Position numbers and translations under genes: made by a program. Below are positions 10,238 to 55,415 of a stretch of 64,000 nt of DNA, in pieces. The DNA is taken from IMG/VR virus record IMGVR_UViG_3300027733_000033. One strand, written 5' to 3'. Numbering within the stretch: the first letter of the stretch is position 1; each line of letters starts with the position of its first letter. The notes beneath the pieces were generated by a model that was not told where the DNA came from, searched no databases, and saw only the letters and a program-made list of their open reading frames with translations. This DNA comes from a virus.

Positions 10238-10346
10238 ACTAAATATTTTGTACAAAAAAAGCCACTCGCGGGATTGCAGTCCCCAGTGGCACTAATCATC
10301 CTAACATTAATTACGAGAACTAACATGACCAGCACAAGTATTTATA
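10238..10346 (+). promoter_or_regulatory. Endonuclease leader element: late promoter ACTAAATA, covarying stem-loop, antisense TATAAATA
   Basis: GCCACT-CGC-GGGA-TTGCAG-TCCC-C-AGTGGC; homologous elements at 15061, 22046 and 55311. Confidence 0.8.
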
Positions 10347-11022
10347 CTCCCATCACACCCACCTATCTGTACATCAAACAACACTCCATCACAAAAAAGA
10401 AATACTTCGGTAAGACCACTAGAGACCCATACACATACAACGGCTCAGGGGTTTATTGGACCAATCACATCAAGAAACACAGCAAAGAACACATCGTAAC
10501 TTTATGGGTTTCTGAGTTGTATTATGACACGTCAATTGTAGAAGTAGCCTTAAAGTTTTCTTCAGATAACGACATAGTCAAATCTAAAGAATGGGCAAAT
10601 ACGGAACCAGAAAACGGGTTAAATGGATGCCCTCCTGGCACAAAACGTTCAGAAGAAGCTAAGATTAATATGCGTAAGCCTAGATCAGAAGAAGCTAAGG
10701 TTAATATGCGTAAATCAGAAGAAACTAAAGCCAAAATGCGTAGACCTCGTTCAGAAAAAGCTAAGGCTAATATGAAAGGCAGAGCTCCAAATAAAGGTAA
10801 ATCCACATCACAAGAAACTAAAGACAAAATGTCTGCTAATATGACAGGCAAAAAACGTGGTCCATATAAAAAATCAAGTAAACCTAGAAACCCACGCTCA
10901 GATAAAGGTAAACCTAGAAAACAAGTCACATGTCCACATTGCGGTAAACTGGAGGTGAAAATGGAATGAAAAGATGGCATTTTGATAAATGTAAAGCAGA
11001 AACATCAGTCTCTTTATTTTAA
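10325..11022 (+). CDS. Seg-like GIY-YIG homing endonuclease with NUMOD3-like repeats (frameshift in the C-terminal Zn ribbon)
   Basis: YLYIKQH...YFGKT...YNGSG, (R/H)SEEAK.NMRKP repeats and CPHCGK. One A is missing near 10946 relative to paralog 55394; the restored tail reads TGGENGMKRWHFDKCK. Confidence 0.85.
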
Positions 11023-11061
11023 CATTAAATAATTTACAGTGAATAAAATACTGAGGATATA

Positions 11062-12648
11062 ATGGATTTAAATAATACTGGATACAACGGCAACCGAAAT
11101 TTAAAGCAGGTTGGGTTACCAATTGAGTTCACCGCAGAGCGACTCGAAGAATACATTAAATGTAAAAACGATCCTGTCTACTTCATAATAACATACTGTA
11201 AGGTTGTTTCGTTAGACAGAGGATTTGTTAATTTTGATTTGTATGAATACCAAGAAAGATTCATTAACGCTATTCATACAAATAGAAAGGTCGCTGGAAT
11301 GTTTAGTCGCCAGCAGGGTAAAACAACAACATCTGCTGCTTACATATTACATTACGTTACATTTAACGACCATAAAACGGTTGCGATTTTGGCTAATAAA
11401 AGCGCCGCCGCCCGTGAAGTTATGAGCAGAATACAGCTCATGTTTGAAGCCTTACCTATATGGCTTCAACAGGGAATTAAGACTTGGAATAAAGGTGACA
11501 TTGAATTAGAAAACGGATCTAAGATTTTCACATCTGCTACGACAGGATCTGGTATTCGTGGTAAATCTGTTAACATGTTATACATTGATGAGATTTCATC
11601 AATTGCTAATACGATTGCTGAAGAGTTTTTCACGTCAACTTACCCCGTTATTTCTTCTGGTAAAGATACTAAAATTTTGATGACGTCAACCCCAATTGGT
11701 TATAACTATTGGTGGAAAGTATGGAACGAAGCTGAAAATGGAATAAATGGCTTTTTACCCTTTAAGGCAGAATGGCACGAACATCCTGAACGTGATGAAA
11801 AGTGGGCAGCTGAACAAAAGGCGTTTCTTGGTGAAGTTAAATTTAATCAAGAAGTATTATGCCATTTCCTCGGTTCTGCGAACACATTAATTGATGCAAC
11901 GACACTAGGATCATTATCTCCTAAGCCGTTTGTGTACTCAACGCAAGACGGCTTAGACATCCTAGAAAAGCCTACACCAAACCATTTTTACGCTTTAGTC
12001 GCAGACACCTCTGAGGGAGTCGGTGGGGACTTCTCAGCGTTTGTTCTAATTGATATTACCGTTTATCCGTTTAAATTGGTAGCTAAGTATAAAAACAATA
12101 AGATTAGTCCTATGTTATATCCTAACGTAATACACAAAGTTGCTTTAGAATATAACAACGCCTATGTTTTGATTGAGATTAATAAATCTCAAGAAGTCGC
12201 TATGATATTGTATGATGAATACGAATACGAGAATATGATATCAGTTAAACGAGGAACAAAGGGACAAGTGCCAGTTGATGGTGGATACAGCAAAGGTTTA
12301 TTAGGCGTTACCACTGATAAAAAAGTTAAACGTCAGGGATGTCAAGCCTTAAAATCTTTGATGGAAGAAAAGAAACTACTGGTTTTTGATACAGACGTTA
12401 TCGGTGAATTCACTACCTTTATCGAGAAAAATGGCTCGTTTGCCGGCGATTCTGGTGCTCATGATGATTTGGTGATGTGTTTAGTATTATTTGGATGGTT
12501 AACATCAAGTGAATATTTTAAAGATATGACTAATATGGATACAAGAAAAGAATTATATTCTGCGCATATGGATATGATTGAATCATCTATGCTACCTGTT
12601 GGATGGTTAGTTGATGGCACAGAACAACCGCAATATGTAAATTTTTAG
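11062..12648 (+). CDS. gp17: Terminase large subunit
   Basis: GYNGNRNLK, SRQQGKTT (Walker A), YIDE (Walker B), TSTP, ADTSEGVGGDFS and HDDLVM. Confidence 0.96.
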   Translation: MDLNNTGYNGNRNLKQVGLPIEFTAERLEEYIKCKNDPVYFIITYCKVVSLDRGFVNFDLYEYQERFINAIHTNRKVAGMFSRQQGKTTTSAAYILHYVTFNDHKTVAILANKSAAAREVMSRIQLMFEALPIWLQQGIKTWNKGDIELENGSKIFTSATTGSGIRGKSVNMLYIDEISSIANTIAEEFFTSTYPVISSGKDTKILMTSTPIGYNYWWKVWNEAENGINGFLPFKAEWHEHPERDEKWAAEQKAFLGEVKFNQEVLCHFLGSANTLIDATTLGSLSPKPFVYSTQDGLDILEKPTPNHFYALVADTSEGVGGDFSAFVLIDITVYPFKLVAKYKNNKISPMLYPNVIHKVALEYNNAYVLIEINKSQEVAMILYDEYEYENMISVKRGTKGQVPVDGGYSKGLLGVTTDKKVKRQGCQALKSLMEEKKLLVFDTDVIGEFTTFIEKNGSFAGDSGAHDDLVMCLVLFGWLTSSEYFKDMTNMDTRKELYSAHMDMIESSMLPVGWLVDGTEQPQYVNF

Positions 12649-12694
12649 GAAAAATATGATTAACTTTAAACAGTTTAGAGAACAGCTCGACGAA
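12643..12694 (+). repeat. 52-bp RBS + capsid-targeting leader cassette, copy 1
   Basis: ttttaggaaaaatATGATTAACTTTAAACAGTTTAGAGAACAGCTCGACGAA, identical to 13502..13553. Confidence 0.95.
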
Positions 12695-13492
12695 ACAATG
12701 CTAGTTGAATCTTCACAAAAAGAACAATTTATCTATAACTCTCATGGTAGCCATGCCTTATTAAAAAGAAAATCTATAAATTTTTCATTAAAAGAAAATG
12801 TTGTTAATCCAAGTTTTGAAAAACATTTTCTAGGGCATAAAACTGATAAGTCATACAGTGAAAATCACAGAGATGAAATATCGAAAAGTAGGGAAATCGT
12901 AGGGAAATTAATAAAAAATAATCCTATATCAAAAGATGCTAGAGAATACATAAGCTCTTATATGCTGAATGATTCTTCAGGACTGACAAAAAGATTATTG
13001 GATACACATAAGCATGTTATGAAACATAATAATCTGGATAATTTTAGAAAAGATAAAAAGCCAGATAAAAAAGATAAAATTATCCAAGGATTGGATAATT
13101 ATGCATTCTCTCCAGCATCTGAAGATTTTGATTCTTATTCTGGCGTAAAATTTGATATTAGTAAAGTAAAGCCGGCTGGAAAAAGTAAAAATGGAAATCC
13201 TATTTATCATCAACCAACATTTATGTCTTCATCTACAAGTAAACATATAGCAAATGAATTTACTGATGATGAATCACCAATTAGACATATATTCCATTGG
13301 AAAAATAAAAAAGGCGATTCTATTTCAGCAGTAGCAGGCGTTCATCATGATGAGCACGAAATTTTATTAAATAGAGGAAATAAAAATACTTATATTGAAC
13401 ATTTAGGTCATAAGGATTATACTGATAAAAATGGAAAAATTGTTAGGGTTCATGAAGTAAGAAAAGTTTCAGATTTAGAAATTAACAACTAA
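12656..13492 (+). CDS. Virion-packaged ADP-ribosyltransferase-like protein (Alt/C2-C3 type)
   Basis: Leader MINFKQFREQLDE; SYSG (Ser at the usual Arg position), FMSSSTS and DEHEILLNRG (ExE) motifs. Confidence 0.75.
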   Translation: MINFKQFREQLDETMLVESSQKEQFIYNSHGSHALLKRKSINFSLKENVVNPSFEKHFLGHKTDKSYSENHRDEISKSREIVGKLIKNNPISKDAREYISSYMLNDSSGLTKRLLDTHKHVMKHNNLDNFRKDKKPDKKDKIIQGLDNYAFSPASEDFDSYSGVKFDISKVKPAGKSKNGNPIYHQPTFMSSSTSKHIANEFTDDESPIRHIFHWKNKKGDSISAVAGVHHDEHEILLNRGNKNTYIEHLGHKDYTDKNGKIVRVHEVRKVSDLEINN

Positions 13493-13501
13493 GAAACCGA
13501 A

Positions 13502-13553
13502 TTTTAGGAAAAATATGATTAACTTTAAACAGTTTAGAGAACAGCTCGACGAA
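13502..13553 (+). repeat. 52-bp RBS + capsid-targeting leader cassette, copy 2
   Basis: Identical to 12643..12694. Confidence 0.95.
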
Positions 13554-14975
13554 GCCAGAAAAAACCCTGAGATGAACCCTAGAATCTCAGCATACGAAGC
13601 ATTGTTACCGTATAAAGATGACGATAACGCATTTATACATTTTACCAATTTGAACAAACTTGGTATTAACCCTTTATCTGGATTTGAAACCCCAGTCGGT
13701 GTTTACGCTTACCCGCTAAAACAAGTTTGGAATCTTTATAAAGTAGATAAAGCAAAATCTTTATCTGTGTTACCATTTGGTTCTGATAGAGCCTATATTC
13801 AATTATTCAAATGGAACGGCAAAGGCAAATTAGTCAGCGATTTAAAAAAGGATTATACAAGCACAGATTATGATTCTGATATGCGTAAGTTGAGAACAAT
13901 CTATAAGGATATTCAGTCTAAAACTGATACATCAAAAGCATGGAATGCTTTAGTTAAAGGCATTTTTAAACACAAATTAGAAATTCCAGATGATTTTGAA
14001 GAAGGCAATGTCGTCAATATAACTCACCTTTTGGATACTGTGTTTGGTTCAGATAAAGTTCGTCGCGGCATAACAATCAAAGATAGTCCTAGAACAAAGC
14101 CTATTTTTGATGATATACTGAAAGCCGGTAAAGTGTATATGAAAGATAAAAAATCTGATTCAAATTGGGATAAGTTTAGTAAGAAATTTGAACTTTACCA
14201 TATTGAACCACCTCCCCGTATGGCAATTCTTTTTGTGAGTGCAGATGAACTTGAATATGAAATTGAAGATGCTATAAGAAACTCAGACAAATATCGTACA
14301 TGGGAAATTAACGTAAACAAGCCGGCTATTTATAGGGAACTAAAACCGCTTCAAGACGCATACAATAATTCTCTATTTAATGTTGATGATATAATTAATG
14401 CCGCTACAGAAAAAACTCGCAACCCATCACCAGCAACTTGTTTCTGGAATGTAACCCGTTGGTTGTCTAATTATGGGATAGATCCTAATGTCAGAAGATT
14501 TACCAGTGATGTTATGTTTGCTAAAGACGGGCATCATAGACAAATTCAAGCGCCTACGTTAGATACAGCAGAAATTAAAGCCGGCTCTAGACAATGGGGA
14601 AATCTGTTACGAAAACTAGGTTACGCGGGATTTGTTGATAGAAGAGCAGATGGCATTATACACCCTGCTGAACCTTGTCAGGCTGTATTTACCGGTATGG
14701 ATTACATTGAGTTGATTGACACTGTGCTTAATAAGGATTATGCCAAACTTAAACACGATGATGAAGTAACATTAGAAAATTTAAAAAATGCTTCTCATAA
14801 AGACTTGATGGATTATATTATGAATTGGAACGCTAATGCTATTGACAAAATTGATATGAAATATTTGAAATGGATAAATGATTCAACAGATTTAGCCAAA
14901 ATGGTTGTTGGTATGATGATTAAAGGTTCTACAACGACAAAAATAACCCAAGAAATTGATTATATCAAAAGCTGA
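13515..14975 (+). CDS. Virion-packaged protein with possible divergent ART-like domain
   Basis: Same leader; FIHFT..LGINP..TPVGVYAYPL and LRKLGYAGFVD..GIIHPAEPCQAVF motifs. Confidence 0.55.
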   Translation: MINFKQFREQLDEARKNPEMNPRISAYEALLPYKDDDNAFIHFTNLNKLGINPLSGFETPVGVYAYPLKQVWNLYKVDKAKSLSVLPFGSDRAYIQLFKWNGKGKLVSDLKKDYTSTDYDSDMRKLRTIYKDIQSKTDTSKAWNALVKGIFKHKLEIPDDFEEGNVVNITHLLDTVFGSDKVRRGITIKDSPRTKPIFDDILKAGKVYMKDKKSDSNWDKFSKKFELYHIEPPPRMAILFVSADELEYEIEDAIRNSDKYRTWEINVNKPAIYRELKPLQDAYNNSLFNVDDIINAATEKTRNPSPATCFWNVTRWLSNYGIDPNVRRFTSDVMFAKDGHHRQIQAPTLDTAEIKAGSRQWGNLLRKLGYAGFVDRRADGIIHPAEPCQAVFTGMDYIELIDTVLNKDYAKLKHDDEVTLENLKNASHKDLMDYIMNWNANAIDKIDMKYLKWINDSTDLAKMVVGMMIKGSTTTKITQEIDYIKS

Positions 14976-14980
14976 TAATA

Positions 14981-15013
14981 TGACGCCCAGTTCCTATTTG
15001 GTTCTGGGCGTCA
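14981..15013. terminator. 10-bp hairpin terminator
   Basis: TGACGCCCAG...CTGGGCGTCA after the stop codon. Confidence 0.75.
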
Positions 15014-15060
15014 AAATATTAATCGTTCAATATCAATACAACCGTCTAAAATTAAAATTT

Positions 15061-15158
15061 ACTAAATAATTATATAGTAAGATTCGCGATATTACCAGTA
15101 TCCAATCTTTCTAATACTTTGATTTTAATGGAGGAAGTACCAGCTATGAATATTTATA
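15061..15158 (+). promoter_or_regulatory. Endonuclease leader element (HNH copy)
   Basis: ACTAAATA; AAGATT-CGC-GATA-TTACCAG-TATC-C-AATCTT; CTAATACT...AGTACCAG; antisense TATAAATA at 15151-15158. Confidence 0.75.
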
Positions 15159-16618
15159 CGATTTTAAGTTCAATGAAACATAATAAACTTCAATTAAACA
15201 GATATTTAAAGTTTATTGATTGGTGTTCAAAAACAAATATTAACGGCGTTGAATTTGCACATTTGCACCATATATGTCCTAAATCTATGTTTCCTATGTA
15301 TTCAAATTTAACTACAAATAAATGGAATGGAATAAAGTTAACACATAGACAACATTACATTGCTCATTTAATGTTAACTAAAGTTTACCCAAAATCTATA
15401 AAAATGACAAGGGCATTTATATGTATGAACGCTAGTAGTCCACAATTCATAAAAATACATTCAAAATGTTATGCTAGTAATGTAGCAAAATTAAATGGGA
15501 AAGTTATAGCAAAAAATAAAATCACCGGAAAATATGAACACATCACATCTGAAGAATACGCTAAAGGTAATCATACGCATAATAGCGTAGGTATGGTAAC
15601 TGCAATTGATGCTGCTGGAAATATTATAAAGGTGACATCAGAAAAATTCAATTCTACAGAAAATTTAAAGGGTGTAAAAGCCAATACCGTTTCTGTTATA
15701 TTTAAAGATAACAGCACTGGGCATGTAACAAAAGAACAATTTGATTCTAATGATGAATTAGTTGGTGTGTTAAATGGAAAAGTATATGCAAAAAATAATG
15801 AATCAGGAAATTATGAATGGATAACTCCAGAAATATATTCTAAAGGCGATTATACACATTTTAATAAAGGTTTGATCACTGGTAAAAATAAAATCACCGG
15901 TGATGTCGAAAGAATAACTTCTGAAGAATACGCTAAAGGCAATCATACGCATAATAGCGTAGGTATGGTAGCTATATCATTAAATGATGGAACATACGCT
16001 AAAGTTACAAAGGAAGAATTTAATAAAGGCGGCTATAAAGGAGTAAATAGTGGTTATGTTATAGCAAAAAATAAAATCACCGGTGAATCTAAAAGGATAA
16101 CTTCTGAAGAATATTTTTTGAATTGTGACTATACCACACACCATTCAGGAACAGTTATAGCAAAAAATAAAATCACCGGTGATGTCGAAAGAATAACTTC
16201 TGAAGAATACGCTAAAGGCAATCATACACACAGCACAACAGGAACAGTTACAGCAAAAAATAAAATCACCGGTGATGTCGAAAGAATAACTTCTGAAGAA
16301 TACGCTAAAGGCAATCATACACATGATAATAAAAATATGGTCACTGTAGTATTAAATGATGGAACATACGCTAAAGTTACAAAGGAAGAATTTAATAAAG
16401 GCGGCTATAAAGGAGTAAATAGTGGAAAATGTTCTGTTCGTTCTATACACAAAATAGGCTCATATAGAATACCCTGTGGGACACTAAAAGATTACGAAGT
16501 GACCGTATATAAAAAAATTGTTTATGTTCATAATAGTTCAACTAATGAAGAAAAAATTTTATCTAAAAATGAATTCGTTGATGAAAAATGGAAACTGGGA
16601 AAACTAGAAAAAAATTAA
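15146..16618 (+). CDS. HNH endonuclease with about 10 tandem 30-32-aa repeats
   Basis: HLHHICPKS...LTHRQHYIAHLML nuclease, then G.V.AKNKITG..ERITSEEY.KGNHTH repeats. GGAGG RBS precedes the ATG at 15146. Confidence 0.85.
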   Translation: MNIYTILSSMKHNKLQLNRYLKFIDWCSKTNINGVEFAHLHHICPKSMFPMYSNLTTNKWNGIKLTHRQHYIAHLMLTKVYPKSIKMTRAFICMNASSPQFIKIHSKCYASNVAKLNGKVIAKNKITGKYEHITSEEYAKGNHTHNSVGMVTAIDAAGNIIKVTSEKFNSTENLKGVKANTVSVIFKDNSTGHVTKEQFDSNDELVGVLNGKVYAKNNESGNYEWITPEIYSKGDYTHFNKGLITGKNKITGDVERITSEEYAKGNHTHNSVGMVAISLNDGTYAKVTKEEFNKGGYKGVNSGYVIAKNKITGESKRITSEEYFLNCDYTTHHSGTVIAKNKITGDVERITSEEYAKGNHTHSTTGTVTAKNKITGDVERITSEEYAKGNHTHDNKNMVTVVLNDGTYAKVTKEEFNKGGYKGVNSGKCSVRSIHKIGSYRIPCGTLKDYEVTVYKKIVYVHNSSTNEEKILSKNEFVDEKWKLGKLEKN

Positions 16619-16642
16619 AATTTATGATTGTTTGAATTTTAT

Positions 16643-16682
16643 AAATTGGGTGCATGCCTTAATAAACATTGCACCCAATTTT
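16643..16682. terminator. Bidirectional hairpin between convergent genes
   Basis: AAATTGGGTGCA...TGCACCCAATTT. Confidence 0.75.
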
Positions 16683-18398
16683 TTATTTATTGTGGATAAT
16701 CACAGAAAAATCATTTTGTTTTTCTACTTGTATAACATCGTCAAACATATCTTTGACGTGTTCATCGTGAGATATAATAAATACACTAATCCCTATTTGC
16801 GATTTCAACACACCTATTAATGAAGTAGAACCTTCTCCATCTAAAGAACCAGAAAATATCTCATCTAATATTAAAAGATTCGTATTAGCAGAATTCTTAA
16901 GTTTAGCAATTTCTCTCCAAGCAAATAAAAGCGCTAAATCAATTCTAGATTTTTCACCCTCAGAAAAATTATCATATGTCATTGTATCTCTATATCTTGA
17001 TTTGATAACCTCGTTAAATTGCTCATCTAAGTTAAAGTCACAATAGAAATCCATAACAGCAAGATATTTGTTAATTAAGGTATTCATCAGTGGTAAATAC
17101 TCACGAATGATAGCCGTTTTAATACCGCCGTCTTTCAGCAATAATACCCCTACATCTTCAACACCCTTTTGCTCAACCAATATCTTTTTGCGGTTTATTA
17201 GCCTAATAGCTTCTTCAACCAAATCTTTAAGTGTATTTTTCTCAGCTTCGATATTTTGAGTCGAGTTAACAGATTCCAATAAAGATTGGTTGAGTTTTGT
17301 TATCCTGGACTCAATCACATTTATTTCAGATTGTAAACCTCTAACATCATTTCTAGCTGTAACAATATCTTTCTCAGTTTCGATTATCCCAGCTAACCTT
17401 TTTTCCTGTTCTTGGTATTCCGTTCCAGACTGAATAAACAAATCATTCATATCCTTTTTACTAGATTCTAAATCGCTTAATACGCCGCCGGAATGTGTAT
17501 GTGGAATATTTTGCTGACAGGAAGGACAGCTTGCGTTTTCATTAAAGAACACAATCGATTTATCTAAGGTATCAATCTCATGCTTAACCTTTCTCATTGT
17601 ATTGTTAAGACTTTTAAGTTTAGCATTAACCGCATCTTTTTCTAAAACTGAAGGAGTTAACCCATCAATTATAGCTTGAGCCGCCGCTATTTTTGCCTGC
17701 CGATTTTCTACTGTAGTTGTATCTTCTTTGATATTCGCTTTAATAGCATCAATTTCAGACTGCTTATTGACTTCTAAATGTGCTATAATTCTTTGCTGCG
17801 ATTCAACCTTATTTTTAGCAATTTTTAATGCCGATTCAATATAGGTCAGTTCTTCTTTAGTTTTAGATAGCCGCTCTTTTAATAGTTGATTCATTATAGA
17901 AAAGATACGAATATCCAGAATATCTTCAATAATCTCTCTACGCTGACTTGAACCCATTTTCATAAACGGTGTAAACGTGGCTGAACCAAGAATAACGACC
18001 TGTGTAAACGTTTTCATATTCATCTTAAGAATCTGTTGCTCTAAAACAACCTGATAATCCTTAACAGCAGAATCTTGATTGATTAGTTCATCATTACGAT
18101 AAATCTCAAAGGTGTTAGGCTTAATGCCACGAACAACTTTATAGTAAGCGCCGCCCTCCTCAAATTCAATCTCAACGACACAATTTTTCTTATTAATACT
18201 ATTAACCAAACCGCCCTTACTGATGTTTCTAAATGGTTTACCGAATAGAGCAAAGGTTAAAGCACAAAGTACAGAACTCTTGCCATTTCCATTACCGCCT
18301 ACGATTAATGTTTGCTTGCCGGTATCTAATCTAATTTCATTAAATTGGTTGCCGGTTGATAAGAAGTTTCTCCATCTTATTGTCTTAAAATTAAGCAT
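16683..18398 (-). CDS. gp46: Recombination endonuclease ATPase subunit (Rad50/SbcC-like)
   Basis: WRNFLSTGN, GGNGNGKS, CPSC hook, FSEGEK, LILDE and IISH. Confidence 0.96.
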   Translation of the reverse strand: MLNFKTIRWRNFLSTGNQFNEIRLDTGKQTLIVGGNGNGKSSVLCALTFALFGKPFRNISKGGLVNSINKKNCVVEIEFEEGGAYYKVVRGIKPNTFEIYRNDELINQDSAVKDYQVVLEQQILKMNMKTFTQVVILGSATFTPFMKMGSSQRREIIEDILDIRIFSIMNQLLKERLSKTKEELTYIESALKIAKNKVESQQRIIAHLEVNKQSEIDAIKANIKEDTTTVENRQAKIAAAQAIIDGLTPSVLEKDAVNAKLKSLNNTMRKVKHEIDTLDKSIVFFNENASCPSCQQNIPHTHSGGVLSDLESSKKDMNDLFIQSGTEYQEQEKRLAGIIETEKDIVTARNDVRGLQSEINVIESRITKLNQSLLESVNSTQNIEAEKNTLKDLVEEAIRLINRKKILVEQKGVEDVGVLLLKDGGIKTAIIREYLPLMNTLINKYLAVMDFYCDFNLDEQFNEVIKSRYRDTMTYDNFSEGEKSRIDLALLFAWREIAKLKNSANTNLLILDEIFSGSLDGEGSTSLIGVLKSQIGISVFIISHDEHVKDMFDDVIQVEKQNDFSVIIHNK

Positions 18399-18406
18399 CT
18401 TATCCC

Positions 18407-19462: not shown

Positions 19463-19471
19463 AATATCCTT

Positions 19472-20065
19472 TTAGCCAATTAAATTTTCTGGTTCATTAA
19501 TGTCATCGACAACATCAAATAAGTCAATATCTGATTCCATAAATTTAGATAATTCATTAATGTGTTCACGTTTTAATTTTGGTTTTTTCTCATAATATTT
19601 TGAATAATCTGATTTTTGTAAGGAATTCAAATATTCAAGATATTCGTTTACAACTTCTTTATTATCGTGTTCTTGGCTGGAATATTTTTCCACATTAATA
19701 TTTTTTGCCATTTCGCTTCTAGTATAGGCTTGGTCGCGTTCTTTTACGATTGTGGCAAGAAAAGAATAGTAGCAACACTGTGAAAAATACGAAAATGGGT
19801 TTTGTGTTCTTTCAGGGTCAAACGTATCAAAATATCTTATACAGTTTACTATGGCGTCTTGTATCATTTCATCTTTATACGAACGCCCGTAATATAGCGG
19901 TCTTTTAGCAAAATTGGTGGCAATATCAGTTATACATTTTCCAAGGTAATCATTAATCTTTGGTTTAGGTAAACCCTTTTCTTCGGCTTCTTTTAATGCG
20001 GCTTTCCTTTTGACAATTTCTTCATAAAATTTTACATTGTCTACATAATTATTTCTTGCTGTCAT
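19472..20065 (-). CDS. gp55: Late-transcription sigma factor
   Basis: NYVDN..FY, YKDEMIQDA, FDPERTQNPFSYFSQ; adjacent to gp47. Confidence 0.93.
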   Translation of the reverse strand: MTARNNYVDNVKFYEEIVKRKAALKEAEEKGLPKPKINDYLGKCITDIATNFAKRPLYYGRSYKDEMIQDAIVNCIRYFDTFDPERTQNPFSYFSQCCYYSFLATIVKERDQAYTRSEMAKNINVEKYSSQEHDNKEVVNEYLEYLNSLQKSDYSKYYEKKPKLKREHINELSKFMESDIDLFDVVDDINEPENLIG

Positions 20066-20568: not shown

Positions 20569-20649
20569 TTTAACCTCCAAATTTTAATTTCACCTAATTA
20601 TACCGTATGCAAATGTAAAAGTAAAGCTTTTTTTAAAATTATTTTTAAT

Positions 20650-21971: not shown

Positions 21972-22045
21972 TATAATTCTCCCAATAATTTAACTTCATT
22001 AAACTCTATTATATCTATTTTTATAAAAAGTAAAGCTTTATTTTT

Positions 22046-22158
22046 ACTAAATATTTTGTACAAAAAAAGCCACTCGCGATGTTACCAGCATCCAGTAGCA
22101 CTAATCATTCCAATGACAATTTAAGGTAAAACTATCATGACCAGCACAACTATATATA
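22046..22158 (+). promoter_or_regulatory. Endonuclease leader element (second GIY-YIG copy)
   Basis: ACTAAATA; GCCACT-CGC-GATG-TTACCAG-CATC-C-AGTAGC; CTAATCAT...ATGACCAG. Confidence 0.8.
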
Positions 22159-22802
22159 CTCCTATCACACCCACCTATCTGTACATCAAACAGCATTCCA
22201 TAACCAAAAAGAAATATTTTGGTAAGACCACTCGAGATCCATACAAATACAATGGTTCTGGTAAGCACTGGTCTAGACACATCAATAAACATGGTAAAGA
22301 ACACATCGTTACTCTTTGGGTTTCTGACTTGTATCACGACACATCAATTGTCGAGGTTGCCTTAAAATTTTCTGCTGATAACGATATCGTCAAATCTAAA
22401 GAATGGGCGAACCAAAAACCAGAAAATGGATTAGATGGCGGAAGTGTGAAACATACAGAAGAAACTAAACTCAAAATGTCTGTTGCACATGAAGGTAAAA
22501 AACACACAGAAAAAACTAAAGCTAAAATGCGTAAGCCTAGATCAGATGAAACCAAAGCCAAAATATCTGCTACTCTAACAGGCAAAAAACGTGGGCCTCA
22601 ATCAGAAGAAACTAAAGACAAAATATCTGCAGCTAACAAAGGTAAACCTAGAAAACCTCAATTAGAAGAATCTAATGCTAAACGATCTGCTACTATGACG
22701 GGTGTCTCTAAACCAGAATTTTTTTCAATAATTGAAAATAGAAAGACTTATGGTAAATCACATCTTTCTAGATATTATCCTGAATTTAAGCAGTACTATT
22801 AG
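22137..22802 (+). CDS. Seg-like GIY-YIG homing endonuclease with NUMOD3-like repeats
   Basis: N-terminal domain nearly identical to 10325; HTEETK.KMS repeats. Confidence 0.88.
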   Translation: MTSTTIYTPITPTYLYIKQHSITKKKYFGKTTRDPYKYNGSGKHWSRHINKHGKEHIVTLWVSDLYHDTSIVEVALKFSADNDIVKSKEWANQKPENGLDGGSVKHTEETKLKMSVAHEGKKHTEKTKAKMRKPRSDETKAKISATLTGKKRGPQSEETKDKISAANKGKPRKPQLEESNAKRSATMTGVSKPEFFSIIENRKTYGKSHLSRYYPEFKQYY

Positions 22803-22900
22803 AACGTGATACATTTAATGCACAGAAAATAACTGTTCATGAGTTGTTAACCAAATCCAACTTCCAATCAAAATACCGCTAATTACAGCAATTAAAATAA

Positions 22901-23848: not shown

Positions 23849-23940
23849 TTCAAACTCCGAATAATTTAATTAAGGTTTAACTTCATTAGACTCTATTATA
23901 CTATGTTTTTAACAAAAGTAAAGCTTTTTTTAAATAAATT

Positions 23941-46085: not shown

Positions 46086-46086
46086 A

Positions 46087-46353: not shown

Positions 46354-46390
46354 AAAAATGCCCGATTCCGGTTAAGGTTTCGGGCATTCA
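46353..46390. terminator. Hairpin terminator between convergent genes
   Basis: AATGCCCGA...TCGGGCATT. Confidence 0.75.
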
Positions 46391-46392
46391 TT

Positions 46393-46656: not shown

Positions 46657-46664
46657 AACTTTCC

Positions 46665-49271: not shown

Positions 49272-49325
49272 CAAAACTCCTTACCAAAAAGACTAATTAT
49301 ACTTTGTTTGTTGCCTAAAGTAAAC

Positions 49326-49892: not shown

Positions 49893-49900
49893 AATATTCC

Positions 49901-50119
49901 TTATTTGTAAATAAATTTTTGGGGACGAGTTTCATAGGTATTTTCTGGAGAAATAGAGGTCTTAAACTTTTGAACAAAAAGACGTTTGGTTTTAAATCCA
50001 GTTATCCATTTTCCATCTACTAAGGTTGGAGAAAACTCGAACCAGTGCCATTTATGGTCAGTATCTTTGCATAAATACCGCGCCCAGTTAGGAGCGGTTT
50101 CCCATTTAGGTTTGCTCAT
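49901..50119 (-). CDS. Small phage protein (KPxWxxAPxWAxYL family)
   Basis: Paralog of 5196..5408. Confidence 0.65.
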   Translation of the reverse strand: MSKPKWETAPNWARYLCKDTDHKWHWFEFSPTLVDGKWITGFKTKRLFVQKFKTSISPENTYETRPQKFIYK

Positions 50120-50498
50120 TAAGGTAATCCGCTACACATTCTAATGAATAAAATACAGAACCCAGATTCAGTTTAACCATATCAGCAGTTGCATAAAGCG
50201 AATGGAGCATTTGTGGGTCGAATAATTCAGTATCTTCTAACAAAATTGCGAATATGGTTTTCCATGGTCGCTTATTAGAATCATCAATGGCTTCAGCTAT
50301 AGAGTAAACGCCTTTAATTTCCGGTGTAATAACGTATAGTACAAAGTCACACTCATTTCGTTGAGTTAACTCCTCAAGTCGAGCTTCTTCGTTCCAGTCG
50401 TCAACAACAGGATTAAAATACTCGATATCAAGCATAGGAATTAATTTATCTCTCCAAGTTGAACCGTTACACGTGCCGCCTAAAAATACTCTTTTCAT
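50106..50498 (-). CDS. Nucleoside 2-deoxyribosyltransferase-like protein
   Basis: VFLGGTC..S.WR....L.I.YFNPVVDDW...E......D...Y.IT....G.YSIAE. Confidence 0.75.
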   Translation of the reverse strand: MKRVFLGGTCNGSTWRDKLIPMLDIEYFNPVVDDWNEEARLEELTQRNECDFVLYVITPEIKGVYSIAEAIDDSNKRPWKTIFAILLEDTELFDPQMLHSLYATADMVKLNLGSVFYSLECVADYLNEQT

Positions 50499-50719
50499 TG
50501 ACCATCATCCCAAATAAAATAAACAAACACCCATGCCACGAATAACGAAAATAATATTACAACTTCTGAATCAGTAATTTCGTTCATAATGTCACCAGCG
50601 AGAGTAATGGTGATGATGGTGTGGGACGTAATAATAGCCGCGATAATGATGTGGATATGGTGCGTATGTGGCGCAACCGGTTAATAATAGCGCTATCATA
50701 AATAAGATATATGTTTTCA

Positions 50720-51091
50720 TTAGAATAGTTCCTCGTATTGTTTGATTACAAATAGATAATATGGAAATGATATTAAAATTCCAGCATTACAATCTAACGG
50801 ATTATAAAACCTTTCAACAATATTATATATTGGGTTTCCTGTTTCATCGTCGCTTTGAATGACAGTAGAGTATTCCGCTTCATAATAAGATACGTCATCA
50901 AAGGTATCGCCGTTTTCGTTATATTTGAAAATTTCAGGCTTATTTCTCATCATATAACGATAATCGCCTTCATCATATATCGGAATCCATTCTACTTCAG
51001 TAGCATTAATCCTAACTTTATAAGGATAATCCCCGCCTAAAGTTAATCCTTTATTATTACCATCAACGTATAAATTGAATGGGAGTTGCAT
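50720..51091 (-). CDS. Hypothetical protein
   Basis: ORF. Confidence 0.6.
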   Translation of the reverse strand: MQLPFNLYVDGNNKGLTLGGDYPYKVRINATEVEWIPIYDEGDYRYMMRNKPEIFKYNENGDTFDDVSYYEAEYSTVIQSDDETGNPIYNIVERFYNPLDCNAGILISFPYYLFVIKQYEELF

Positions 51092-51092
51092 A

Positions 51093-51293
51093 TTATACCC
51101 CAAATTGTAAGGTATAACCTAAAACTTTCAGCGCCGCCTTTGCTTTACGTTTTGCTTCAGTTTTAGTGCTACCATTGAAGTATAACTTTTCCATAGAGTA
51201 ATATCCTTCAATTGGGACATACACTTTAGCAGTAAAAAGTTTTCCAAGAATTCTTGAACGGGTTTCAATAATTTCAGCGGTTACAGTAGACAT
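51093..51293 (-). CDS. Hypothetical early protein
   Basis: ORF behind a type-A cassette. Confidence 0.6.
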   Translation of the reverse strand: MSTVTAEIIETRSRILGKLFTAKVYVPIEGYYSMEKLYFNGSTKTEAKRKAKAALKVLGYTLQFGV

Positions 51294-51422
51294 TTTATAC
51301 ACTCCAATTAATTTAAGGGATAACTTCATTAAGATCTATTATACTACTATTTTATGAAAAGTAAAGCTTTATTTTAAATTATTTTTAGGCATGAAAAAGC
51401 CGACATATAGCCGGCTTAATTA

Positions 51423-52064
51423 CTAGTTGCGAACCAAAATTACATTATGCGTATCGCTTTTATCACCCCGATAAATGAATCCGTTAGAAAAGAATACAGA
51501 ACGATCGTCATCAGTTCCATCACAAGCCCAAAATTCTCCATCAAGGTTCAATTTCAGCAATTCTGTTGTCGTAGGTAAGCGCCACCCATTATGGCAATGC
51601 TCTTTAGCGTATTCAACTGCACCCCACCAATTTTCTTGAATAATTTTTGGAGTTTGTGAAGTAAATTTACCAATAGTTTCCAAATTGTTAGCAACTGCTT
51701 CAATAGCAAAAAAGTTTAGCATTTCATTATAAGCAAAATCAATTTTAGCATAAATAACATAGCATGCCCAAGCAGGCGCTTCGTTATTTACAATGTTTTT
51801 AAACATGGCATCTTCAATGCAGTAAAAACTAAAATTTTCTAAACATTCTCTGCGCGGTTGGCTACGCATACGATTTACCGCAATCCGTTTACCTAATTTT
51901 TTACTATACACGTCAACCTTAGAAGAAAAGGCTACACCAAATGTCACAACAGGTATTTTTGAGCCGTTAGCGCCTGTCATATAATCTGTTTCGTATGCAA
52001 TAGTGATAACATTAGTTCTTGCTAAACTGGTATCACCTAAAAAATAATATTTCACATTGCTCAT
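51423..52064 (-). CDS. Two-domain protein with C-terminal DUF1566-like domain
   Basis: GVAF.S..D.YSKK.G.RIA..R N-terminal domain; W..AVEY....GWRLPT..EL C-terminal domain. Confidence 0.65.
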   Translation of the reverse strand: MSNVKYYFLGDTSLARTNVITIAYETDYMTGANGSKIPVVTFGVAFSSKVDVYSKKLGKRIAVNRMRSQPRRECLENFSFYCIEDAMFKNIVNNEAPAWACYVIYAKIDFAYNEMLNFFAIEAVANNLETIGKFTSQTPKIIQENWWGAVEYAKEHCHNGWRLPTTTELLKLNLDGEFWACDGTDDDRSVFFSNGFIYRGDKSDTHNVILVRN

Positions 52065-52284
52065 AATTTATTACTCCAATTTTATTAAGGTTTAACTTCA
52101 AGATCTATTATACTACTATTTTATGAAAAGTAAAGCTTTATTTATTATCAGGAACCCCACCTAGGATTTCAATACATTCATTAACCCTAACAAAAATAGA
52201 TATCGGTATTTCATATTCGCATACATAATTAAGAAGTTCTCGTACTTCTTCCAGTTTTTCTAAAAGAATTTTGTCATTCATAAT

Positions 52285-52479
52285 TTACCCATATAGCCGC
52301 TTAATTTCAAATTCATAACCCTTATATTCTTCGATTGCTTTTTCCATAGCAATTTCTGCTGATTCTCTGGTTCGATACAAACCTTCAGTAAATGTTTCTT
52401 CAGGACAGGATACTGCATTCCATCCAACAACTTCATATATTTTTAAATCTTTATTGAAATCGTCAGTTAATGAACTCAT
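52285..52479 (-). CDS. Hypothetical protein
   Basis: ORF. Confidence 0.55.
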   Translation of the reverse strand: MSSLTDDFNKDLKIYEVVGWNAVSCPEETFTEGLYRTRESAEIAMEKAIEEYKGYEFEIKRLYG

Positions 52480-53006
52480 AATTCCACCTCCCCGCTGTTC
52501 AACATACCGCAAGCACGTTCTGCATCACTTTTTGTTGTAAAATATACTGCTATTTTTTGGTATATACGAGTAACATCAATAGACCATCTGTCGTCATCAA
52601 CAATAAACTCAATCGTATATTTAAAACTCGATACGTCTGACCAATCCACCACATCATCACCGCATAATTCGTCACGCAAAGCCAGTAAACGATTGAACTT
52701 GCGCATCTCAACAGATGCTTTTTCTGCTTGCTCTCGGGTTGGGCGTTCATGCCCAAATTCTTTTGTTCCAACCCATGACGGTAAATTAGATATTTTACCA
52801 CCCGAATTAATGTTGCACGAACCTCCAACAGGCTGCCATTTAACCGGTTTACGGCGGTATTCGTATCCTTCATACCAATTAAAATTACCGGTAACACTTT
52901 CCCACTTATCATACATTTTAACTTCCCACAACTCCCATGGGGTTTTATTAGTAAATGCGTCTTTTGCATATTCTAACATCAAATCAGCGTGTTTATGTCC
53001 ACTCAT
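52476..53006 (-). CDS. Hypothetical protein (HKHAD..PWELW family)
   Basis: ORF. Confidence 0.65.
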   Translation of the reverse strand: MSGHKHADLMLEYAKDAFTNKTPWELWEVKMYDKWESVTGNFNWYEGYEYRRKPVKWQPVGGSCNINSGGKISNLPSWVGTKEFGHERPTREQAEKASVEMRKFNRLLALRDELCGDDVVDWSDVSSFKYTIEFIVDDDRWSIDVTRIYQKIAVYFTTKSDAERACGMLNSGEVEL

Positions 53007-53287
53007 TATTTACACCCAGCATGATTATCAATTTTATCTTTAGGGATAAAATTTAGTTTATGCTCACTGATACAATATTCATATTTATTTCCTCTCCAAG
53101 ACACTTCAGCTTCACCGGCTAACTCCGCTTGCCCACGAGTATTGAAAACACCAATCACATAACTATGATTTTCACGGTCACCCCAACGTAAGGCTTCAAC
53201 TACAAATAAAGAACCTTCCGCATATTGGGTTTCAAAGGCGGTGTATGTTTTATTTACTGAAGGAACAACAAATTCAGCAGTTTCCAT
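53006..53287 (-). CDS. Hypothetical protein
   Basis: RWGDRENHSYVIGVF....RGNKY. Confidence 0.65.
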   Translation of the reverse strand: METAEFVVPSVNKTYTAFETQYAEGSLFVVEALRWGDRENHSYVIGVFNTRGQAELAGEAEVSWRGNKYEYCISEHKLNFIPKDKIDNHAGCK

Positions 53288-53288
53288 T

Positions 53289-53510
53289 TTAATCTCCAAA
53301 TATAATAGTTTCAGCGGCTTTTTCAGCGCGGATAATTTCAGATTTTATTTTTACTAGAGTGTTAAGGTTATTTTCTAAGGCGGCGGCAATTTTATGCTTA
53401 ACCGGATCGCCACTTGCTTGATATTTATCTACCAGTTTACATCTTTTTTTAATTGTTTCATCTAAAGTATCAAGCACAATTTTCATATTAGACTTTTTGA
53501 ATCGTTCCAT
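53289..53510 (-). CDS. Hypothetical protein
   Basis: ORF. Confidence 0.55.
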   Translation of the reverse strand: MERFKKSNMKIVLDTLDETIKKRCKLVDKYQASGDPVKHKIAAALENNLNTLVKIKSEIIRAEKAAETIIFGD

Positions 53511-53512
53511 TT

Positions 53513-53710
53513 TTATTCGCCTGTTTCGCATTTTGCTGAGTAACCTAATAAACCGTCAACCAACGCCTGTTCAATTTCTGGTTTATGCTGTTCAAGATAA
53601 AACTCACACTCAGCATAGGATTGAAATTCCATAGTAATTTTTTCTGGAGTGCCGTGGTCAACTTGAGACGGTGTAAAATATAGTAAAAATGTTAAAACTA
53701 TTGCTTCCAT
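53513..53710 (-). CDS. Small exported protein
   Basis: Hydrophobic N-terminus and F.S..EC...C motif; similar architecture to 62114..62302. Confidence 0.55.
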   Translation of the reverse strand: MEAIVLTFLLYFTPSQVDHGTPEKITMEFQSYAECEFYLEQHKPEIEQALVDGLLGYSAKCETGE

Positions 53711-53731
53711 TATAATATCCTCAAATTAAAA

Positions 53732-53908
53732 TTAAAGAGTAACAACCATATAGCGCATACCGTAGTATGATTTTTCACCAGGAGTCAGCATTTTATTCCA
53801 GTCTTTTGCCCGTTCCTTTGCTTCTTCTTTAGTTTCAAAAATGAATAAGATATTATCTTTACCACTTTTTGAACCGATACTGCCGCCTTTCAAATATATA
53901 CCAAACAT
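53732..53908 (-). CDS. Early protein homologous to a module of the 38814..39611 internal protein
   Basis: GGSIG...ETKEEA...AK..NK.L(T/S)PGEK.YYG..Y in both proteins. Confidence 0.7.
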   Translation of the reverse strand: MFGIYLKGGSIGSKSGKDNILFIFETKEEAKERAKDWNKMLTPGEKSYYGMRYMVVTL

Positions 53909-54001
53909 ATCAAACACTCCAATTAATTCAAGGGATAACTTCATTAATATCTATTATACTCGGTTTTATAGAAAAGTAAAGCTTTATTTTAAGGCTTAAT
54001 G

Positions 54002-54071
54002 ATATTTTTAAGCGCTTAACCTCAATTCACGCCCGACTAGGCTATTGGTCTATAAAGTAAAGTTTTATTTT
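54002..54071 (-). repeat. Type-B repeat, copy 4 (internal deletion through the -10 and spacer)
   Basis: Identical to copy 1 over roughly 53973-54046, then truncated. Confidence 0.85.
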
Positions 54072-54112
54072 ATATGTGAAAAAGCCGACAATTAAGCCGG
54101 CTTGTTATGAGT

Positions 54113-54454
54113 TTAATAATCGCTGTAATTGCCACTAGATATTCTTGGCCAAGGCTCATCATCTTTAATCGCTTGAGCTAAATCAAACGCATACTTTTTG
54201 GCTGTTGCTAATTTAGAAAACACCCAACTTTCTTTATCGCCAACTTTCTTAAATGATTCTGGCTGTCCTTCATTCACCGACCATTCATTAAATCTTGTTC
54301 TATAAATATCAACAACTGAAGAATCAATCCCTAAACTATTTTTCTCAATAGAAATACGATACCAATCTGTATTAACTTTTCTGATTTTAAGCGGCGCTTC
54401 TTTTTTAGGTTTAGCCGCTTCATTTAAATTTTTGAATTCGTTATAACTTAACAT
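54113..54454 (-). CDS. Internal-head-type protein
   Basis: MLSYNEFKNLNE leader; late promoter ATAAATA at about 54483-54489. Confidence 0.65.
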   Translation of the reverse strand: MLSYNEFKNLNEAAKPKKEAPLKIRKVNTDWYRISIEKNSLGIDSSVVDIYRTRFNEWSVNEGQPESFKKVGDKESWVFSKLATAKKYAFDLAQAIKDDEPWPRISSGNYSDY

Positions 54455-54585
54455 TTGAACCTCATTTAATATTGACCTTACCTATTTATTAAATTCTATT
54501 ATACTCGGTTTTTATCAAAAGTAAAGCTTTTTTTAATTATTTTTTAGGCGCAAAAAAGCCGACAATTAAGCCGGCTTTCGTTTAA

Positions 54586-55275
54586 CTAATCAGCGTATGC
54601 AATCACAATATCTTTACAAATTCCTGACCTAACAATATCGTCTATATCAAAATGAACCCATCCTACATTGTTAAGATGTTTCAAACGGGTAAGCGCATCA
54701 TCTAAACCAGATAATCCTTTAATATCTTTTTGTTGTACGTCACCATCAACTACAACTTTACTGTTTTCGCCGATTCTAGTTAAGAACATTCGCAGTTGTG
54801 TTGGTGTACAATTTTGCGCTTCATCAAGAATAATAAAACTGTCTTCAAATGTACTTCCTCGCATATAGGCTAACGGTCTAAATTCAATAATTTTCCGTTT
54901 GAACAAATATTCAGTAAAAGAAGCGCCTAATCTTTTGTTTAAAATATCCAACATTGGTTGAAGATATGGCAAGGTTTTTTCTTCTAATTCTCCTGGAAGA
55001 AATCCTAAATGTTCACCAGCTTCTTGAATAGGTCTAGTGAGAACAATTTTATTAATCTTTTTGGCTTTTAATAATTCAGCGGCGTAAGCAATAGCAACAT
55101 AAGACTTACCTGTTCCAGCAGAACCTGTACCAAAAGTCAATACGTTTGTTTTTATCGAATTCAGGTAGCGTTTTTGGTTATGTGTTAAGGTAACAATTTC
55201 GGCAGGTTGTAATTCGTCAAGTTCAAAAGTAGGAGCAGTTTGACGTGTCTTTTTAATTTTGCTTGTGGTTGCCAT
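54586..55275 (-). CDS. phoH: PhoH-family ATPase
   Basis: GSAGTGKS, LGFLPG, YMRG.TF, ILDEAQN, TRIG and DIVRS. Confidence 0.95.
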   Translation of the reverse strand: MATTSKIKKTRQTAPTFELDELQPAEIVTLTHNQKRYLNSIKTNVLTFGTGSAGTGKSYVAIAYAAELLKAKKINKIVLTRPIQEAGEHLGFLPGELEEKTLPYLQPMLDILNKRLGASFTEYLFKRKIIEFRPLAYMRGSTFEDSFIILDEAQNCTPTQLRMFLTRIGENSKVVVDGDVQQKDIKGLSGLDDALTRLKHLNNVGWVHFDIDDIVRSGICKDIVIAYAD

Positions 55276-55310
55276 ACAATTTCCATATGTTAAGTTAAAA
55301 TTAGTATTTT

Positions 55311-55415
55311 ACTAAATATTTTGTACAAAAAAGCTGGTCGCGATATCCCCATATCCACCAGCACTAATCATTCTAACGATAAAAGGAATTACCATGACCA
55401 GCACAAGTATTTATA
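55311..55415 (+). promoter_or_regulatory. Endonuclease leader element (third GIY-YIG copy)
   Basis: ACTAAATA; GCTGGT-CGC-GATAT-CCCC-ATATC-C-ACCAGC; antisense TATAAATA at 55408-55415. Confidence 0.8.

Follow-up and report, generated by a model that had tools for sequence, protein, structure and literature searches.

A cassette of about 90 bases lies at the start of a GIY-YIG or HNH homing endonuclease gene at four places in the window (the whole 64,000-nt stretch of DNA, from a T4-like lake phage, analysed here), and comparison of its many relatives shows that the fold under selection is that of the strand opposite the nuclease gene. Large phages carry homing endonucleases as their main mobile genes, and what keeps these harmless has been learned from just a few T-even examples. 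The analysis establishes the anatomy of the cassette, its covariation, the strand of its fold, the geometry of its promoters, selection on it at the nucleotide level, its association with nucleases, and its mobility. On balance, the sequence evidence favors the cassette as the source of a 60–85-nt cis-antisense RNA that would block translation of the nuclease.

Four copies of the cassette

Each copy (10237–10346, 15060–15158, 22045–22158, and 55310–55415) starts with a late-promoter box, followed by a hairpin with bulges (P1) and then a further helix (P2) that encloses the ribosome binding site (RBS) and start, just as a preliminary description had read the four sites; the core TCGCG-N10–15-CCA-N6-CTAAT has four exact matches in the window, against 0.02 expected. 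The stems differ in sequence and pair at all four sites, the outer P1 stems being GCCACT/AGTGGC, AAGATT/AATCTT, GCCACT/AGTAGC, and GCTGGT/ACCAGC and the inner ones GGGA/TCCC, GATA/TATC, GATG/CATC, and GATAT/ATATC. GCCACT/AGTAGC, in copy 3, holds a C·A on the + strand, which is a G·U on the − strand. The earlier account needs one correction: what had been called an invariant CGC/C internal loop is a conserved G-C pair between two single-base bulges, and that pair itself covaries, being A-U in five sequences and G·U in four (antisense strand). P2 is formed by CTAATCAT...ATGACCAG, with the RBS and start inside it, and in the HNH copy by CTAATACT...AGTACCAG. The antisense box reported for three of the four copies is indeed TATAAATA in three, and the remaining copy (copy 3) carries the variant TATATATA. 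The features are as follows.

10237–10245, + strand: copy 1 sense late-promoter box TACTAAATA; left edge of the cassette at 10236/10237, related phage contigs diverging exactly at 10236
10254–10334, − strand: copy 1 predicted antisense RNA (covariance-model match 10259–10334, 87.9 bits; − strand fold −25.9 kcal/mol), with its start near 10333, P2′ at 10332–10292, the bulged P1′ hairpin at 10290–10261, and a U7 end at 10260–10254
10325–10969, + strand: GIY-YIG-type homing endonuclease gene 1, 214 aa (PHROG 314)
10339–10346, − strand: copy 1 antisense late-promoter box TATAAATA, within codons 5–8 of the nuclease gene
15028–16854, + strand: HNH-cassette stretch, missing from related lake phages (joint 15027→16855 in three runs)
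15060–15068, + strand: copy 2 sense late-promoter box TACTAAATA
15077–15145, − strand: copy 2 two-hairpin element, P1 15079–15109, P2 15111–15143 (covariance-model match 42.1 bits, E 4.9e-8)
15146–16618, + strand: HNH homing endonuclease gene, 490 aa (PHROG 655 and 12434)
15151–15158, − strand: copy 2 antisense TATAAATA, codons 2–5 of the HNH gene
19472–20065, − strand: homologue of the T4 late sigma factor gp55 (tblastn with T4 gp55, E 7e-14, 31% identity)
22045–22053, + strand: copy 3 sense late-promoter box TACTAAATA; loose end at 22045
22062–22146, − strand: copy 3 element, P1 22069–22099, P2 22101–22144, U7 tract 22068–22062 (covariance-model match 22067–22146, 75.2 bits)
22137–22802, + strand: GIY-YIG-type homing endonuclease gene 2, 221 aa (PHROG 314, NUMOD3)
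22151–22158, − strand: copy 3 variant antisense box TATATATA, one mismatch from consensus
55310–55318, + strand: copy 4 sense late-promoter box TACTAAATA
55327–55403, − strand: copy 4 element, P1 55333–55362, P2 55364–55401, U6 tract after P1′ (covariance-model match 55331–55403, 80.1 bits; − strand fold z = −3.1)
55394–56035, + strand: GIY-YIG-type homing endonuclease gene 3, 213 aa (PHROG 314 and 655, NUMOD3)
55408–55415, − strand: copy 4 antisense TATAAATA

The covariance model was trained on long-loop copies, with the remaining copies aligned by Infernal; copy 2 was left out of the training set and was matched nevertheless. The N-terminus of nuclease gene 1, MTSTSIYTPITPTYLYIKQH..., is common to many cassette ORFs.

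Distribution and mobility

Scans of viral contigs yielded 132 distinct copies of the cassette, preceding at least 117 distinct nuclease ORFs in uncultured phages; one phage genome of 360 kb holds as many as 13 of them. The first pattern used on the contigs gave 115 loci, about half of them chance matches, which were taken out by a pairing filter. The 117 distinct downstream ORFs are overwhelmingly homing endonucleases, GIY-YIG and HNH among them, and belong to many families, so that the matches do precede nucleases and the portable module first proposed from four copies is borne out.

Related lake phages have or lack the cassette as one unit, and because whole cassettes are absent from some of them we conclude that the element moves together with the nuclease gene. 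The stretch 15028–16854 comprises the promoter, the element, the HNH gene, and the 3′ end of a gp46-like gene, and related phages have 163 other letters in its place; an allele without 21987–22844, the region of nuclease gene 2, also exists. Where flanking genes were compared, 49 cassettes are oriented opposite to both neighbors and 20 are co-oriented with them. An apparent tendency of co-oriented cassettes to keep the antisense box more often (6/7 vs 4/15 in the first 22 contexts) was gone at 116 copies (70% vs 61%).

The element had not been recognized as a named RNA family, and Rfam 15 agrees: the window yields tRNAs only, and three element-bearing loci yield nothing at E ≤ 1 over the element. 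No copy turned up in T4, Aeh1, KVP40, HTVC008M, P-SSM2, or S-PM2 (covariance model R2 for T4 and Aeh1, model R1 for S-PM2, NC_006820); the weak matches of model R2 in P-SSM2, with E about 0.1, fall within genes for tail fibres and the baseplate and are due to chance. Neither megablast nor blastn matched the region or the element to any cultured phage, and the nucleases of the window have only distant relatives in cultured phages (≤34% identity over most of the length).

Covariation and the strand of the fold

The covariation noticed in four copies persists in a large alignment, with 16 of the 19 pairs changing on both sides among 121 distinct copies. None of 500 shuffles reaches the observed values, and slid controls pair in 31–52% of cells.

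The two strands fold unequally. Among the 121 copies, whose cells are not phylogenetically independent, 98.7% of cells are paired when the strand opposite the nuclease gene is folded and 88.8% when the sense strand is. G·U pairs number 237 in the antisense fold and 14 in the sense fold, and leaving out the two tandem columns reduces the first figure to 51. The sense-strand mismatches fall almost only at positions of antisense G·U. On the sense strand P2 carries two tandem A·C mismatches and is barely stable, with a mean folding energy of −1.8 kcal/mol compared with −6.35 kcal/mol on the antisense strand, and the whole element is stabler on the antisense strand in 115 of 116 copies. These data show that selection acts on the fold of the strand opposite the nuclease gene, and therefore that the cassette probably makes a small antisense RNA. 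Of the roles offered in the preliminary description (riboregulator, antisense pair, or mobility end), the antisense pair is favored, and the asymmetry between G·U and A·C speaks against a sense-strand leader fold.

Promoters and terminator

The sense box lies upstream of both arms of P2 and 3–27 nt upstream of P1; the distance from box end to P1 is 5 nt in 55 copies and 3 nt in 17. In 76 of 116 copies the TATTTA core of the antisense box follows CCAG at one and the same distance (offset 6), and in 69 of 116 the full TATTTAT does. About 40% of copies, including the one at 22046, have a box with one mismatch (TATATAT, TACTTAT, or TATTTAC), the particular variant of copy 3 being present in 16 of 116.

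Since the antisense box lies within the nuclease reading frame, its codons can be compared with background usage. The codon before the box ends in T in 95 of 102 copies, encoding ten or more amino acids (background 34%); at the box itself the ratio ATT:ATA:ATC is 69:18:0 as against 40:46:14, and TAT:TAC is 89:7 as against 72:28. This bias in synonymous codons and third bases shows that the antisense box is under selection at the nucleotide level.

A run of at least five T in the 8 nt after P1′ is present in 101 of 116 copies, the GIY copies of the window having U7, U7, and U6; it usually begins 2–5 nt from the P1′ stem, and the sense promoter in part accounts for it. No clean U tract follows P1′ in the HNH copy. 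The gp55 homologue, which is also encoded in five element-bearing genomes, would be expected to read TAAATA boxes, and TAAATA is depleted in the window (98 occurrences vs 156 ± 12 expected).

A candidate antisense RNA and its alternatives

In the mechanism that we propose, two convergent T4-type late promoters, about 75–95 bp apart, would frame the cassette at the start of the nuclease gene. The sense promoter (NTAAATA) would fire at or just before the base of P1 to give the nuclease mRNA. The antisense promoter, in the first codons, where the sense strand reads TATTTAT, and at a spacing of exactly N5 from the GCUGG with which P2′ begins, would give a 60–85-nt RNA with P2′ followed by P1′. The loop of P2′ is predicted to carry an anti-Shine-Dalgarno sequence, and P1′ to form a helix of 11–12 bp in which two G bulge out; because a U-rich tract, partly the complement of the sense promoter, comes next, P1′ resembles an intrinsic terminator. 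We infer from sequence that both promoters are active, that the RNA stops after P1′, and that the nuclease is repressed by it. Fully complementary to the leader, RBS, and start codon of the nuclease, such an RNA would pair with the mRNA and block initiation, trigger cleavage of the duplex, or both, and the potentially harmful nuclease would therefore stay low. The invariant pair of bulged G and the tandem G·U of GCUGGU/AUUAG, which a simple antisense model leaves unexplained, suggest a protein or tertiary contact.

As many as 13 copies in one genome have in common the invariant GCUGGU...AUUAG helix, an anti-SD loop, and a hairpin with bulged G. Their antisense RNAs could therefore conceivably act in trans on all nuclease mRNAs of a phage or be bound by one dedicated protein, with a genome-wide network timing the nucleases and the module serving as a recombination handle that captures new nuclease domains; we regard this extension as speculative and unlikely.

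Rather than regulating the nuclease, the cassette might insulate host transcripts, its antisense fold terminating or processing host read-through RNA that has crossed the nuclease gene and an outward late promoter restarting the next host gene behind a stabilizing leader, so lowering the cost of insertion. Most cassettes do lie antisense to their neighbors (the 49 opposite to both, against 20 co-oriented), P1′ is terminator-like, no sigma-70-like promoter is seen at copy 4 in the 57 nt that separate P1′ from the start of phoH (54586–55275, − strand), and T4 nuclease genes with embedded promoters for neighboring host genes are known (PMC2988022). However, cassettes co-oriented with their neighbors have no host gene downstream on the antisense strand, yet they retain the antisense fold and, in 14 of 20, the antisense box as well; the fold spans exactly the nuclease RBS and start; and the spacing from box to helix is fixed, needlessly so for a mere neighbor promoter. 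We consider this role improbable.

A T4-type leader acting on the sense strand seems slightly less probable again. Here P2, possibly closed in read-through transcripts by AUAAAUA/UAUUUAU pairing, would mask the RBS and AUG, late transcripts starting at P1 would escape, and P1 would protect the 5′ end of the mRNA. I-TevI, segB, and mobE provide precedent (PMC2988022), the RBS and start do lie within P2, the two boxes form an inverted repeat, and a sense promoter at the base of P1 would yield a 5′-terminal hairpin. Yet the tandem A·C mismatches leave the sense P2 at a mean of only −1.8 kcal/mol and occur almost only where the antisense strand has G·U; the promoter precedes both arms, so that late transcripts are not freed from P2; and seven A-U pairs by themselves make a weak helix, one that covariation cannot test. 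Least probable, and very doubtful in our view, is a function in the DNA itself: the element would mark the end at which cassettes recombine or home, fold into a hairpin as single-stranded DNA, or, as a protein-binding site, favor the shuffling of nuclease modules. The loose ends at 10236 and 22045 place the cassette edges at the sense promoter, and unrelated nucleases share the module down to their first codons, which implies recombination within it; a precedent would be the PeSL cassettes, which Arbiol and co-workers reportedly described in 2010 as mobile regulatory units. Against this, compensatory changes preserve pairing rather than sequence, unlike a duplex-DNA binding site, the strand-specific tolerance of G·T (237 vs 14) is unexpected for a cruciform, and the promoter geometry and anti-SD loop are left unexplained.

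If the antisense RNA reading is correct, the cassette would be a distinct solution to nuclease restraint—a portable antisense-RNA cassette with convergent late promoters, reused across unrelated nuclease families—and a new RNA family for annotation. It would also serve to flag nuclease cassettes in metagenomes, offer a compact natural limiter of expression by sense and antisense transcription, and make it possible to test directly whether the late promoters of phages are in routine use for regulatory antisense RNAs.

Relationship to known systems

The homing endonuclease genes I-TevI, I-TevII, I-TevIII, segB, and mobE of T-even phages and Aeh1 have RBS-sequestering hairpins and late promoters (PMC2988022). 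They resemble the cassette in that these phage genes, too, begin with a late-promoter box and a hairpin over the RBS and start, with the same presumed restraint. The link to T4 that had been drawn from this holds as an analogy only, since in those genes late transcripts lack the 5′ arm through the placement of the promoter, whereas here the promoter precedes both arms. The bypass hairpin of I-TevI and mobE was rejected as a description of the cassette on three grounds: there is no stable mRNA hairpin over the RBS and AUG (sense P2 −1.8 vs −6.35 kcal/mol antisense), the late promoter is not inside or after the 5′ arm, the sense box lying upstream of both P2 arms, and model R2 has no match in T4 or Aeh1. 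The cassette differs further in its conserved fold, which belongs to the opposite strand, and in the selection on a second, convergent promoter.

Dassa et al. 2009 (PMC2677866) described 5′ UTR hairpins with TATAAATA and two complementary motifs before GIY-YIG and Vsr-like nucleases in the 'fractured genes' of GOS. The setting is alike—T4-like phages of aquatic metagenomes, a hairpin and late box before free-standing nucleases of different families, and two conserved, mutually pairing motifs—and those motifs probably belong to the present cassette family, as judged from the published description. In the passages of that paper on these motifs, the hairpins are described as sense-strand and translational, and no strand test, antisense promoter, or covariance model is reported there.

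CfrI of the T4-like cyanophage S-PM2 is an experimentally detected antisense RNA overlapping a homing endonuclease gene (Millard et al. 2010, as cited in PMC2984593). As summarized there, it is ~225 nt, reaches into psbA, and comes from a single locus; the cassette is short and multi-copy and has a defined two-helix fold. PeSL (promoter-early stem-loop) elements of RB49-type phages were ruled out, as the boxes here are of the late type (NTAAATA) and early promoters of the form TTTACT-N16/17-TATAAT lie outside the element.

The cis-antisense regulators of harmful genes, such as IS10 RNA-OUT/RNA-IN and the type I toxin-antitoxin pairs hok/sok and symE/SymR, are small, stable stem-loops, typically with bulges in the stem, which have their promoter inside the 5′ end of the target and are complementary to its RBS and start. 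The cassette has no sequence relation to these; its repression is predicted, both of its promoters are phage late promoters, and it heads more than 100 unrelated nuclease genes. At the sequence level it has two of the marks of such regulators, an opposite-strand promoter box within the 5′ part of the target and a conserved antisense structure.

Four copies of the element in the window

The element, a module of about 90 bases, heads four nuclease genes in the window, and on direct re-reading of the sequence all four sites are as the preliminary description gave them. The sense box upstream of helix P1 was located by pattern match.

Sense boxes, TACTAAATA
starts at 10237, + strand, copy 1 (GIY)
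starts at 15060, + strand, copy 2 (HNH)
starts at 22045, + strand, copy 3 (GIY)
starts at 55310, + strand, copy 4 (GIY)

Exactly four matches to the core TCGCG-N10-15-CCA-N6-CTAAT occur in the 64 kb, against 0.02 expected. Each copy has, in order, a 6-bp outer stem, CGC, a 4-5-bp inner hairpin, C and the return arm (together P1); one base past that arm, CTAAT-NNN and NNN-ACCAG (helix P2) enclose the RBS and start. Although the three GIY copies are closely paralogous and their flanks almost match, GCCACT/AGTGGC becomes GCTGGT/ACCAGC among them via three compensated changes. As claimed, antisense TATAAATA lies within the first codons in three copies, the fourth having TATATATA, and the ORFs 3' of all four encode homing endonucleases (PHROG 314/655, NUMOD3, HNH). 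In the GIY copies, the spacer from sense box to P1 contains a perfect 12-bp palindrome, TTTTGTACAAAA (10246-10257, 22054-22065 and 55319-55330), which stretches the promoter-to-P1 spacing to 14-15 nt; it is also found in some related contigs.

Host phage and late transcription

Judged from its sequence, the phage belongs to the T4-like myoviruses and is divergent. Its polymerase, of the gp43 type, shares 40% identity with cyanophage polymerases, and the window encodes a T4-type terminase, SbcC/gp46, phoH, hsp20 and, by homology, a gp55 late sigma factor (19472-20065). The window's sequence is present in DNA runs from lake and freshwater metagenomes. The hexamer TAAATA is strongly depleted (98 observed vs 156 +/- 12 expected), which is consistent with avoidance of stray late promoters, and ATTAAATA lies upstream of the terminase gene; it is therefore reasonable to read the boxes as late promoters.

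Distribution of the element

Three pattern scans of viral contigs, combined with a pairing filter, yielded 116 distinct copies (132 with a relaxed pattern). Trained on 25 copies that did not include the HNH copy, a covariance model recovers that copy at E 5e-8 and has no match elsewhere in the window besides the known copies. Whole-record searches found 13, 12, 8, 2 and 2 copies in phage genomes of 361, 333, 259, 198 and 191 kb, respectively, all five of which encode a gp55-like protein. Homing endonucleases from many GIY-YIG and HNH families make up the overwhelming majority of the 117 distinct ORFs 3' of the element, with PHROG 314 in 70, PHROG 655 in 41, and more than 20 further PHROG families.

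The element had not been recognised as a named RNA family in the preliminary description, and an Rfam search of the window and of three element-bearing loci returned no family matching it. Covariance-model searches of T4, Aeh1, KVP40, HTVC008M and S-PM2 found no copy; matches in P-SSM2 lie inside tail genes and are due to chance. On one cassette-bearing viral contig a permuted, betaproteobacterial-type tmRNA gene (L034:3463-3849, +) lies ~300 nt from the element and may hint at the host.

Fold, covariation and strand

The conserved fold belongs to the antisense strand. Among 121 distinct sequences read on that strand, 98.7% of cells are standard pairs and 16 of the 19 pairs vary on both sides, values reached in none of 500 shuffles; slid-alignment controls pair in only 31-52% of cells. 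The covariation first proposed from the four copies thus persists in a larger alignment. The supposed CGC/C internal loop is actually a base pair with a bulge on either side (GC in 112 sequences, AU in 5, GU in 4, unpaired in none).

The key result is a strand asymmetry: the strand opposite to the nuclease gene has 237 G.U and 14 A.C, and on the nuclease strand these counts are reversed and pairing drops to 88.8%. With two tandem columns left out, the antisense reading gives 51 G.U vs 14 A.C. These tandem P2 pairs are G.U/G.U on the antisense strand and A.C mismatches at the same sense-strand positions; the second switches between G.U and A-U (64 vs 55), an ordinary wobble-to-Watson-Crick change. 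Mean P2 folding energy is -6.35 kcal/mol antisense vs -1.8 sense, and in 115 of 116 copies the antisense strand gives the whole element its stabler fold.

Promoter boxes and U tract

The sense box is ATAAATA in 82 copies and CTAAATA in 19; its end is 5 nt from P1 in 55 copies and 3 nt from it in 17. The antisense-box core TATTTA stands at a fixed offset past CCAG in 76 of 116 copies (full TATTTAT in 69), so the antisense strand is laid out as ATAAATA-N5-GCUGG; about 40% of copies have one-mismatch antisense boxes. With the spacing usual between T4 late promoters and transcript starts, sense and antisense transcripts would both begin at the first base of a helix.

Selection on the antisense box is evident in codon-level bias, which rules out a by-product of Ile-Tyr codons. 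Ile codons there are ATT:ATA:ATC = 69:18:0 (background 40:46:14), Tyr codons TAT:TAC = 89:7 (background 72:28), and T is the last base of the preceding codon in 95 of 102 copies (background 34%), with at least ten amino acids represented. Between the two cassette types the start codon is displaced by two codons, with the antisense box-to-P2 distance unchanged. In 101 of 116 copies P1', as P1 is called on the antisense strand, has at least five T in the 8 nt that follow it, and the tract is U7, U7 and U6 in the GIY copies of the window.

Mobility and neighbouring features

Contigs of related lake phages show two junctions, one linking 15027 to 16855 (three runs, with 163 different letters in between) and one linking 21986 to 22845. 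Such contigs also diverge from the window precisely at 10236 and 22045, where the sense box begins. It follows that the cassette, of which the element forms the 5' module, is either there in full or missing altogether. In one related contig (run X10, record 2), 12643-13501, a 278-aa ORF of no known family, is missing, and the terminase gene is longer by ~1.18 kb near 11861; each of these differences looks like another mobile insertion (nuclease, intron or intein) that does not carry the cassette.

Neighbouring features
10198-10226, 10107-10134, 9081-9108, 20597-20625 and 23895-23922, - strand, TTTACT-N16/17-TATAAT by motif match
54586-55275, - strand, PhoH-like gene flanking cassette 4
56412-56828, - strand, Hsp20-like gene flanking cassette 4
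57239-57985, - strand, six-tRNA cluster (Thr, Pro, Thr, His, Tyr, Met)

The early-promoter-like TTTACT motif recurs 5' of - strand genes; the one at 10198-10226 lies directly against cassette 1 on its left, and cassettes 1 and 2 have a similar motif in common. A hairpin, GGGTGCA...TGCACCC, with a T-rich run (16640-16685), looks like a two-way terminator between convergent HNH and gp46-like genes. PhoH-like and Hsp20-like genes belong to the usual auxiliary repertoire of aquatic T4-like phages.

Proposed mechanism

On balance, we think that the element makes a cis-antisense small RNA acting on nuclease mRNA. A late antisense transcript of 60-85 nt would start at GCUGG, fold into P2' (with an anti-SD loop) and a bulged P1', and terminate in the U tract; by pairing with the nuclease mRNA over its leader, RBS and start it could repress the gene. 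The sequences themselves demonstrate the element's anatomy, the strandedness of its fold, the geometry of the boxes and the selection on them; that the boxes fire, that the RNA terminates and that it represses are all predicted. Weak points of this antisense-RNA reading are the one-mismatch antisense boxes in about 40% of copies, and the invariant bulges and tandem G.U, which it does not account for.

A 49:20 bias toward insertion antisense to neighbours suggests that the element might instead be an insulator or leader for host transcripts, which we consider unlikely. A T4-type leader acting on the sense strand seems slightly less probable again; P2 is the weaker fold on that strand. That the element is a DNA-level end is the most doubtful of these explanations.

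Comparison with known systems

Hairpins, TATAAATA and two complementary motifs 5' of such nucleases in ocean metagenomes are described by Dassa et al. 2009 (PMC2677866), interpreted there as sense hairpins; they are probably of the same family as the present element. An antisense RNA lying over a nuclease gene has a precedent in CfrI of S-PM2, although CfrI is not homologous to the element (the model search of S-PM2 gave no match).
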